Part shown: positions 58,400 through 58,700 of the stretch, in pieces
Layout: each line of letters starts with the position of its first letter
How positions within the stretch are numbered: the stretch's first letter is position 1
DNA from: Patescibacteria group bacterium
GTDB taxonomy: Bacteria; Patescibacteriota; Patescibacteriia; JACRDY01
DNA: 64,000 nucleotides
Reading direction: 5' to 3'
Assembly: GCA_041650515.1 (NCBI GenBank)
Contig: JBAZLA010000002.1
Span: forward strand, 39,572-103,571
The notes under the pieces: generated by a model
The model's input: only the letters and a program-made list of their open reading frames with translations
What the model was told of the DNA's origin: nothing
The model's database searches: none
Translations under genes and position numbers: made by a program

Positions 58400-58700
58400 A
58401 AAAAAGGCCGGCATGGAAATTCGACCGTCAGGCCGATACTTCTCTACCAACCCCAAATTGTTCGCAAACCCAGGCGGCGGTCTCCGGGTTACGGCAAACA
58501 ACGACTTTATGGCCGTGCTCAACTGGCTGGGCGGTAACCACTACCACCGCTCGCGGCCAGACCTTGGAAAGGTCAATGGCCGGATCCGGCCTTTGAGGCA
58601 ACGTCAAAGCGACGCCCTCAATTCTTGCGGCTTTTCGCAACAAGCCGAGTAGAATTACCTCTGGCAACGTTTGTATAGGTTCCAATCTCCCTCCAGGTTA
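58400..58700. other. GC-rich islet (~55% GC) with mutually exclusive small ORFs on both strands and a minus-strand hairpin-T7 end. Possibly an unclassified ncRNA or a foreign small gene.
   Basis: The base composition breaks from the flanks. The plus ORF 58413..58652 has GC3-rich codons. The minus ORF 58428..58685 has a GGAGGGAGA sequence before a TTG start. GCCGGCC followed by T7 lies at the minus-strand 3' end near 58400. Confidence 0.3.

Follow-up and report, generated by a model that had tools for sequence, protein, structure and literature searches.

The GC-rich islet upstream of murI

We examined a stretch of 64,000 nucleotides (nt) from a Patescibacteria group bacterium (GenBank assembly GCA_041650515.1, contig JBAZLA010000002.1), referred to here as the window and numbered from its first letter, and in particular a GC-rich islet at positions 58400-58700. 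We consider this islet to be probably a monocistronic, lineage-specific (orphan) gene for a small protein on the minus strand, possibly of foreign origin. The 64-kb window is a segment of a metagenome-assembled genome (MAG) of the Patescibacteria, or candidate phyla radiation (CPR), and has a G+C content of 40.8%. Among its 250-nt intervals the one with the highest G+C content was 58401-58650, at 57.2% compared to a mean of 40.7% and a standard deviation of 4.4%, and thus about 3.8 standard deviations above the mean. A preliminary description of this DNA, made from its letters, had placed a jump to roughly 55% G+C at 58400-58700, which agrees well with these measurements. The G+C content was 58% in 58400-58599 and 55% in 58500-58699, and it was noted that the edges of the GC-rich block match the limits of an 85-codon open reading frame (ORF) at 58428-58685.

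The islet had initially been described as lying downstream of murI. This orientation needs to be reversed, because murI (glutamate racemase; 57576..58367; an identical protein is so named in the source, and the product carries the PF01177 domain, Asp_Glu_race) is on the minus strand, and the islet therefore lies upstream of its start in the transcriptional sense. Both ORFs that had been named in the islet were present in the ORF listing, namely one of 79 codons on the plus strand (58413..58652) and one of 85 codons on the minus strand (58428..58685). The minus-strand ORF begins with a TTG codon at 58685, ends with a TGA stop at 58430-58428, and encodes the product MEPIQTLPEVILLGLLRKAARIEGVALTLPQRPDPAIDLSKVWPRAVVVVTAQPVEHGHKVVVCRNPETAAWVCEQFGVGREVSA, of which the peptides IEGVALTLPQRPDPAIDLSK and AVVVVTAQPVEHGHK are segments. 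It is already annotated at NCBI as 'MAG: hypothetical protein WC480_01990 [Patescibacteria group bacterium]' on a 243.5-kb contig. Two other assemblies of this organism, from ENA and Logan, also contain the islet unit, and the regions that they share with the window are 99.97% and 100% identical to it, respectively.

Layout of the minus-strand unit

On the minus strand the islet is preceded by a gene for an 89-amino-acid (aa) product (58800..59069), which has a terminator of its own. This intrinsic terminator (58755..58785, minus strand) has the form AAAAGCCGGUUAG-UUGUU-AGCCGGUUUUUU, in which a U run comes after a hairpin of -15.0 kcal/mol, and is predicted to insulate the islet from upstream transcription. 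A sigma-70-type promoter-like site is found at 58724..58752 (minus strand), comprising TTGACA, a 17-nt spacer, and TATATT, and agreeing with the consensus at 11 of 12 positions. The site was identified as a consensus match only, and the putative transcription start near 58717 was derived from it. Promoter-like sites scoring at least 11/12 numbered seven on both strands of the 64-kb window (128 kb), including this one, and at least three of the seven (15621, 63066, and 58752) fall in inter-ORF gaps before an ORF on the same strand. As a strong sigma-70-type promoter, 58752-58724 would start a transcript of approximately 320 nt near 58717.

The putative 5' untranslated region (58686..58717, minus strand) would be about 32 nt long and carries an in-frame TAA stop at 58700-58698 and a Shine-Dalgarno (SD)-like motif, GGAGGGAGA, at 58694-58686, corresponding to the sequence that had been reported ahead of the TTG. 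The TTG at 58685 is the first possible start codon after the in-frame TAA and is directly preceded by GGAGGGAGA, which as a canonical SD sequence would direct initiation at this codon. A predicted 5' hairpin, present in both the minimum free energy (MFE) and centroid folds, pairs CAGUUUC with GAGAUUG over the start codon.

At its other end the unit possesses an intrinsic terminator (58399..58454, minus strand), consisting of a 22-bp imperfect, G·U-rich hairpin followed by U7, which is likewise predicted in both the MFE and centroid folds. The GCCGGCC followed by T7 that had been pointed out at the minus-strand 3' end was located at 58412-58399. The UGA stop of the ORF sits in the UGAC tetraloop of this terminator, and the last eight codons form its 5' arm. 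We calculated a folding energy of -26.7 kcal/mol for the hairpin on the minus strand compared to -11.2 kcal/mol for the same stretch on the plus strand, and the terminator is therefore read as a minus-strand signal. Both components of an intrinsic terminator, a stable GC-containing hairpin and a U run, were found here on the transcribed strand; a simple terminator scanner missed the site because its criteria demand a short loop and stem. The terminator end at 58399 lies 31 nt from the murI ATG, and with its stop codon in the loop of this long terminator the islet unit would end at that distance ahead of murI. Overall, the minus-strand ORF has the layout of a gene, with a promoter-like site in 11/12 agreement with the consensus, GGAGGGAGA, a TTG start, a TGA stop, and a hairpin with U7.

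A near-perfect zero-spacer palindrome of 24 nt, TCAATGGCCGGATCCGGCCTTTGA, was identified inside the 85-codon ORF at 58573..58596. It is an inverted repeat with 12-nt arms that are 92% complementary and a GGATCC core (BLAST self-match E = 0.004), and the shorter palindrome noticed earlier, GGCCGGATCCGGCC, forms its central part. The GCGGT...ACCGC hairpin that had been listed along with it is also present in the sequence. A further copy of the palindrome half-site, CCGGCCTTT, is found at 58403-58411, within the 3' arm of the terminator. A repeat scan detected no flanking direct repeats or target-site duplications around the islet.

Frame-specific coding signature

We assessed the coding potential of the islet with a codon-position test, for which 43 native genes served to train a position-specific model that then scored the minus-strand frame against the five other frames. 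The log-likelihood of the minus frame was 15.6 nats over the mean of the five other frames and 12.9 nats over the best of them. Native coding segments of equal length yielded 16.7±4.6 nats (n = 186; the islet stands at their median), with the correct frame being the best in 93% of cases, while open frames from dinucleotide-shuffled sequence yielded 1.15±4.0 nats (P = 6e-4 to reach the observed value; P = 1e-3 for any frame, unconditionally). By this measure, the islet cannot be told apart from genuine coding sequence and lies well away from the null. The minus-strand ORF has a G content of 0.43 at codon position 1 and 0.19 at position 2.

The plus-strand ORF scored differently, with a frame log-likelihood about 14 nats below that of the minus-strand ORF. 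Its GC3-biased codons, noted in the preliminary description, were confirmed by a G+C content of 0.575, 0.475, and 0.662 at codon positions 1, 2, and 3, and this bias arises because the minus frame has a G-rich first position. By their coordinates, the two ORFs share codon phase with positions 1 and 3 swapped; in this antisense arrangement, a shadow frame opposite a real gene tends to remain open. The plus-strand product is hydrophilic and rich in G, N, R, and S, with a grand average of hydropathy (GRAVY) of -0.77. We considered this ORF as a gene and rejected it, as it has no promoter-like site, no SD motif, a worse frame score, and no homologues. The coding status of the islet had been left ambiguous between the two ORFs; we determined that they are not equally plausible, and the plus-strand ORF is judged to be an antisense, same-phase shadow of the minus-strand ORF.

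Homology searches and evidence against a coding gene

Several results weigh against a protein-coding gene at this position, including the outcome of all homology searches. The 85-aa product matched itself alone in a word-indexed search of 5.8 billion clustered proteins, and a full HMMER search of 1.84 billion representatives returned only itself and one chance match, P0002. Searches against Pfam, NCBIfam, PADLOC, PHROGs, and PDB sequences gave nothing above threshold, and neither DNA nor tblastn searches of phage, plasmid, IMG/VR, and JGI metagenome sequences found a relative of the islet. When the region was shuffled with its dinucleotides preserved, 32% of the resulting sequences had at least one fully open frame, and the native sequence itself has three frames that stay open over 69-85 codons, the third of these (+1) for 69 codons. 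Because open frames are this common in shuffles and the +1 frame is also open, the presence of an ORF is by itself uninformative. In addition, translation would have to begin at a TTG codon, with a spacer of just 4 nt after the SD motif. The amino-acid composition of the 85-aa product was not native-like, in a test that did not separate it from shuffles (P = 0.087).

A single-sequence AlphaFold2 (AF2) model of the minus-strand product showed a compact alpha/beta arrangement (predicted local distance difference test score, pLDDT, 60; predicted template modelling score, pTM, 0.47) with the secondary structure H9-19, E25-29, H39-42, E47-50, E58-64, and H67-77 (H-E-H-E-E-H). The confidence of this model is low, with a pLDDT of 60 compared to 57 for the plus-strand product (pTM 0.24), which served as a control, and AF2 therefore lends weak backing to the minus-strand product as a protein. 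The minus-strand product has a GRAVY of +0.19. Translation of the unit would produce an 85-residue soluble, roughly neutral alpha/beta protein.

Neither ORF had been assigned to a known family in the preliminary description, and the protein and profile searches, which covered both frames, bore this out in that they yielded no relative above threshold for either ORF. A concatenated query of the plus-strand ORF and the +1 and -1 open stretches also produced no homologue. Two candidates were considered and rejected. The first was DUF2399 (PF09664, the Toprim-like C-terminus of JetD-type proteins), which scored 13.5 bits over 36 residues compared to a cutoff of 23.4 (E = 0.061), with no PADLOC match. 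The other was P0002, which derives from a tandem 159-nt repeat translated through in-frame TAG codons and whose score sums six copies of one weak match; its DNA had no nucleotide similarity to the islet and no Rfam match. On the ENA contig in question (L083, 1526-2857), the 159-nt unit is repeated in approximately eight tandem copies and has been called as a 443-aa 'protein'.

A variable junction upstream of murI

We gathered relatives of the locus through murI, obtaining 80 GTDB loci, the best of which had 61% identity, along with five closer contigs at 61-69%. The gene order in the window is LemA, M48 peptidase, DUF8173, PGM_PMM, murI, RseP-like M50, PheS, PheT, and DnaE. This synteny is partly kept among the relatives, with L086 alone spanning most of the order, without DUF8173, and L084 and L085 sharing the part downstream of murI. 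In the window the junction between PGM_PMM and murI (58368-60357) holds an insert of approximately 2 kb with a NUDIX gene, a 211-aa gene, the 89-aa gene, and the 85-aa islet, the last three of which are family-less. The same junction is empty in L086 (61-nt gap) and in L084 (10-nt gap; the upstream 447-aa gene there is truncated and has no Pfam record, and its identity as PGM_PMM is assumed). In L087 it is occupied by a HAD hydrolase, and in L088 by HicA and a 108-aa gene. This pair also lies upstream of murI in L085, whose contig ends before any PGM_PMM gene.

The islet was missing from all five of these loci, and an nhmmer search of the related loci found nothing similar. No comparable GC island was observed in the six closest loci profiled for composition. 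The proteins encoded at this junction in the relatives showed no relationship to the 85-aa, 89-aa, or 211-aa product, and the 211-aa neighbour has no relative in the JGI metagenomes. Because the islet is missing in relatives that keep the synteny around murI, the PGM_PMM-murI junction is a variable accessory spot, and because the islet is part of a lineage-specific insert, it is neither a conserved housekeeping RNA nor a conserved murI leader. The 85-aa gene would be the last element of this insert and may have an accessory role, possibly as mobile-element or defence cargo.

A perfect TATAAT is found 9 nt before the murI ATG (58367-58385, minus strand), and murI has no SD motif. The position of this TATAAT indicates that murI probably has its own near-leaderless promoter, and these features suggest that its mRNA is leaderless or near-leaderless.

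SD-bearing, GC-raised genes across the window

An SD-like motif within 25 nt was found at three of the 57 gene starts in the window (5745, 41467, and 58685), the others having AT-rich leaders. The three SD-bearing genes have G+C contents of 0.57, 0.46, and 0.55, respectively, which are above average, and none belongs to a curated family. This suggests that they are a minority class acquired, perhaps recently, from SD-using donors of higher G+C content; no donor was found for them, and a literature search on SD usage in Patescibacteria returned nothing directly relevant. The raised G+C content of the 85-aa gene and its SD motif, in a genome almost devoid of such motifs, likewise suggest acquisition from a higher-GC, SD-using donor, which might have been a mobile element or phage.

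These observations bear on the two possibilities that had been raised at the outset, an unclassified non-coding RNA (ncRNA) or a foreign small gene. The small-gene part is strengthened by a promoter-like site, SD motif, terminator, codon-position composition, and lineage-specific insert that all point to the minus-strand ORF, while the ncRNA part drew no support from the Rfam and folding results described below. The word 'foreign' draws on composition and the SD motif, the searches having found neither a donor nor a homologue.

A second islet at 5745-5933 (plus strand; GC-rich from about 5740 to 5960) has a G+C content of 57% and a GC3 of 0.81 and encodes a 62-aa protein with two transmembrane (TM) segments. 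Its product, MKTLKIIMIL...GWCPLCRYVAAKEKKR, is preceded by an AGGAGG SD sequence, and the gene has its own hairpin-plus-T terminator and lies on the strand opposite to its neighbours. The product gave weak matches to PHROG 1443 (E = 2e-4) and, below threshold, to ATP-synt_I and phage TM families, while the ORFs 5610..5879 (minus strand) and 5711..5971 (plus strand) at this islet are spurious. Its codon usage is clearly foreign, given the GC3 of 0.81 and the failed native-frame test. This second islet is a clear SD-bearing small membrane-protein gene and provides a precedent within the window for the 85-aa ORF. The third SD-bearing gene, at 41467-41856 (plus strand), encodes a family-less 129-aa product, has a strong SD sequence, GAGGAGGAG, and a moderately raised G+C content of 46%; in the frame test, its own frame did not clearly outscore the other five. 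At about 5610-5650 (minus strand), just upstream of the gene at 4258..5589, a stretch of approximately 19 nt with a -10-like element is tandemly duplicated (TATGCTATAATTTGAAGT, two copies).

Alternative explanations for the islet

GC-rich islands in AT-rich genomes are a classical signal of ncRNA, and the islet could be a stand-alone minus-strand small RNA (sRNA) of about 320 nt, structured or trans-acting, with a frame that is open merely from GC-richness. Its strong promoter-like site and its strong, strand-specific terminator would suit such a gene, as would its being the GC-richest spot of an AT-rich window, its several stable local hairpins, including the 24-nt palindrome, its orphan 85-codon ORF, and the 32% of shuffles with chance open frames. 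Compared to dinucleotide shuffles, the 320-nt unit also folded with z-scores of -3.09 (minus strand) and -0.87 (plus strand). However, without the terminator the z-scores were -1.63 (13 of 200 shuffles fold as well) and -0.78, respectively, and since the minus-strand value falls from -3.09 to -1.63 on its removal, the structure signal appears to come largely from the terminator. No match to RNase P, the signal recognition particle RNA, or transfer-messenger RNA (tmRNA) had been seen in the preliminary description. In keeping with this, all 4227 models of Rfam 15 gave nothing in the islet at gathering threshold (the sole match in the window was tRNA-Glu at 9537-9608), a permissive scan of 58300-58850 (E <= 10) returned hairpin-level noise (best P26, with 21 bits compared to a gathering threshold of 36; E = 0.053), and ARAGORN identified no tmRNA. 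Moreover, a three-base periodicity equal to that of real genes (P about 1e-3) is not expected of ncRNA, the first start codon is immediately preceded by an SD motif although few genes of this genome carry one, and the element is missing from synteny-conserved relatives, with no DNA relative detected by nhmmer in about 1.3 Mb of related loci. We therefore regard an sRNA gene as unlikely. It appears quite unlikely that the approximately 320-nt minus-strand transcript is a previously unclassified RNA acting at the RNA level, for example as a dual-function sRNA-mRNA or as a translation-coupled attenuator with read-through into murI; if true, the latter would mean that in a CPR bacterium an orphan ORF is linked to a gene for cell-wall precursors.

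A cis-acting leader or attenuator of murI, in which transcripts from 58752 would either stop at 58454-58399 or read through, with ribosomes at the loop UGA melting the 5' arm and thereby coupling the two genes, seems highly improbable. The case for it is one of geometry: the promoter-like site, about 320 nt of transcript, the terminator, and, after 31 nt, the murI ATG follow one another on one strand, and the terminator uses the last eight codons and the stop for its 5' arm and loop. The scan also found no full promoter-like match for murI itself. Nevertheless, murI has the TATAAT 9 nt before its ATG, an antiterminator was sought in the nascent-transcript fold and none was found (the 5' arm forms a local hairpin only), murI in the relatives lacks such a leader, with intergenic gaps of 10-61 nt, and there was no riboswitch or T-box match. 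The islet might instead be a non-functional or decaying remnant of acquired GC-rich DNA, in which the ORF and its signals persist by chance or transiently. Its atypical composition, its position in a variable insertion spot, and its orphan status in every database searched are all consistent with a remnant, and the faint, sub-threshold resemblance to DUF2399 (E = 0.061) could hint at a gene fragment. However, promoter, SD motif, unbroken frame, and terminator are all intact and in the right order, no parent gene turned up among the 1.84 billion proteins searched in full with HMMER, and the ENA and Logan loci both encode exactly the same 85-aa protein, which leads us to view a remnant as very unlikely.

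Comparison with known systems

The HicAB cassette in L085 and L088 resembles the islet in that it consists of small accessory genes directly upstream of murI, although the 85-aa and 89-aa products share no similarity with HicA or its 108-aa partner and have no PADLOC or Pfam matches. Within the window, the islet at 5745-5933 is like the 85-aa ORF in being GC-rich (57%), SD-bearing, and stand-alone, with its own terminator and no curated family. The two have no sequence similarity to each other, and the codon-position pattern of the 85-aa ORF differs in being native-like, shifted towards GC.

Compared to bacterial sRNA genes, which typically combine a promoter, a structured RNA of 100-400 nt, and a terminator, the islet is alike in its promoter-like site, terminator, length of approximately 320 nt, and relative GC-richness. 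It differs in its coding-type periodicity and its SD motif with a start codon, in belonging to no Rfam family, and in showing no clear excess of structure once the terminator is set aside. Although GC-rich islands are a classical cue for ncRNA in AT-rich genomes, the one found in this CPR genome is better explained by a small orphan coding gene, and the frame-periodicity test with calibrated controls offers a simple way to decide such cases without homologues. The significance of the finding is modest, and none of the evidence bears on any long-standing open question.

The closest likeness in kind is to the ORFan small genes of CPR variable regions, with which the 85-aa gene shares a short monocistronic coding sequence, the absence of a family, the annotation as a 'hypothetical protein', and a location whose content varies. 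It stands apart from them in its G+C content of 57% compared to 41%, its canonical SD sequence, and the lack of any relative among about 15 billion proteins. From this comparison, the islet is most likely a family-less example of a very common kind, the orphan gene, and not a new class of RNA.

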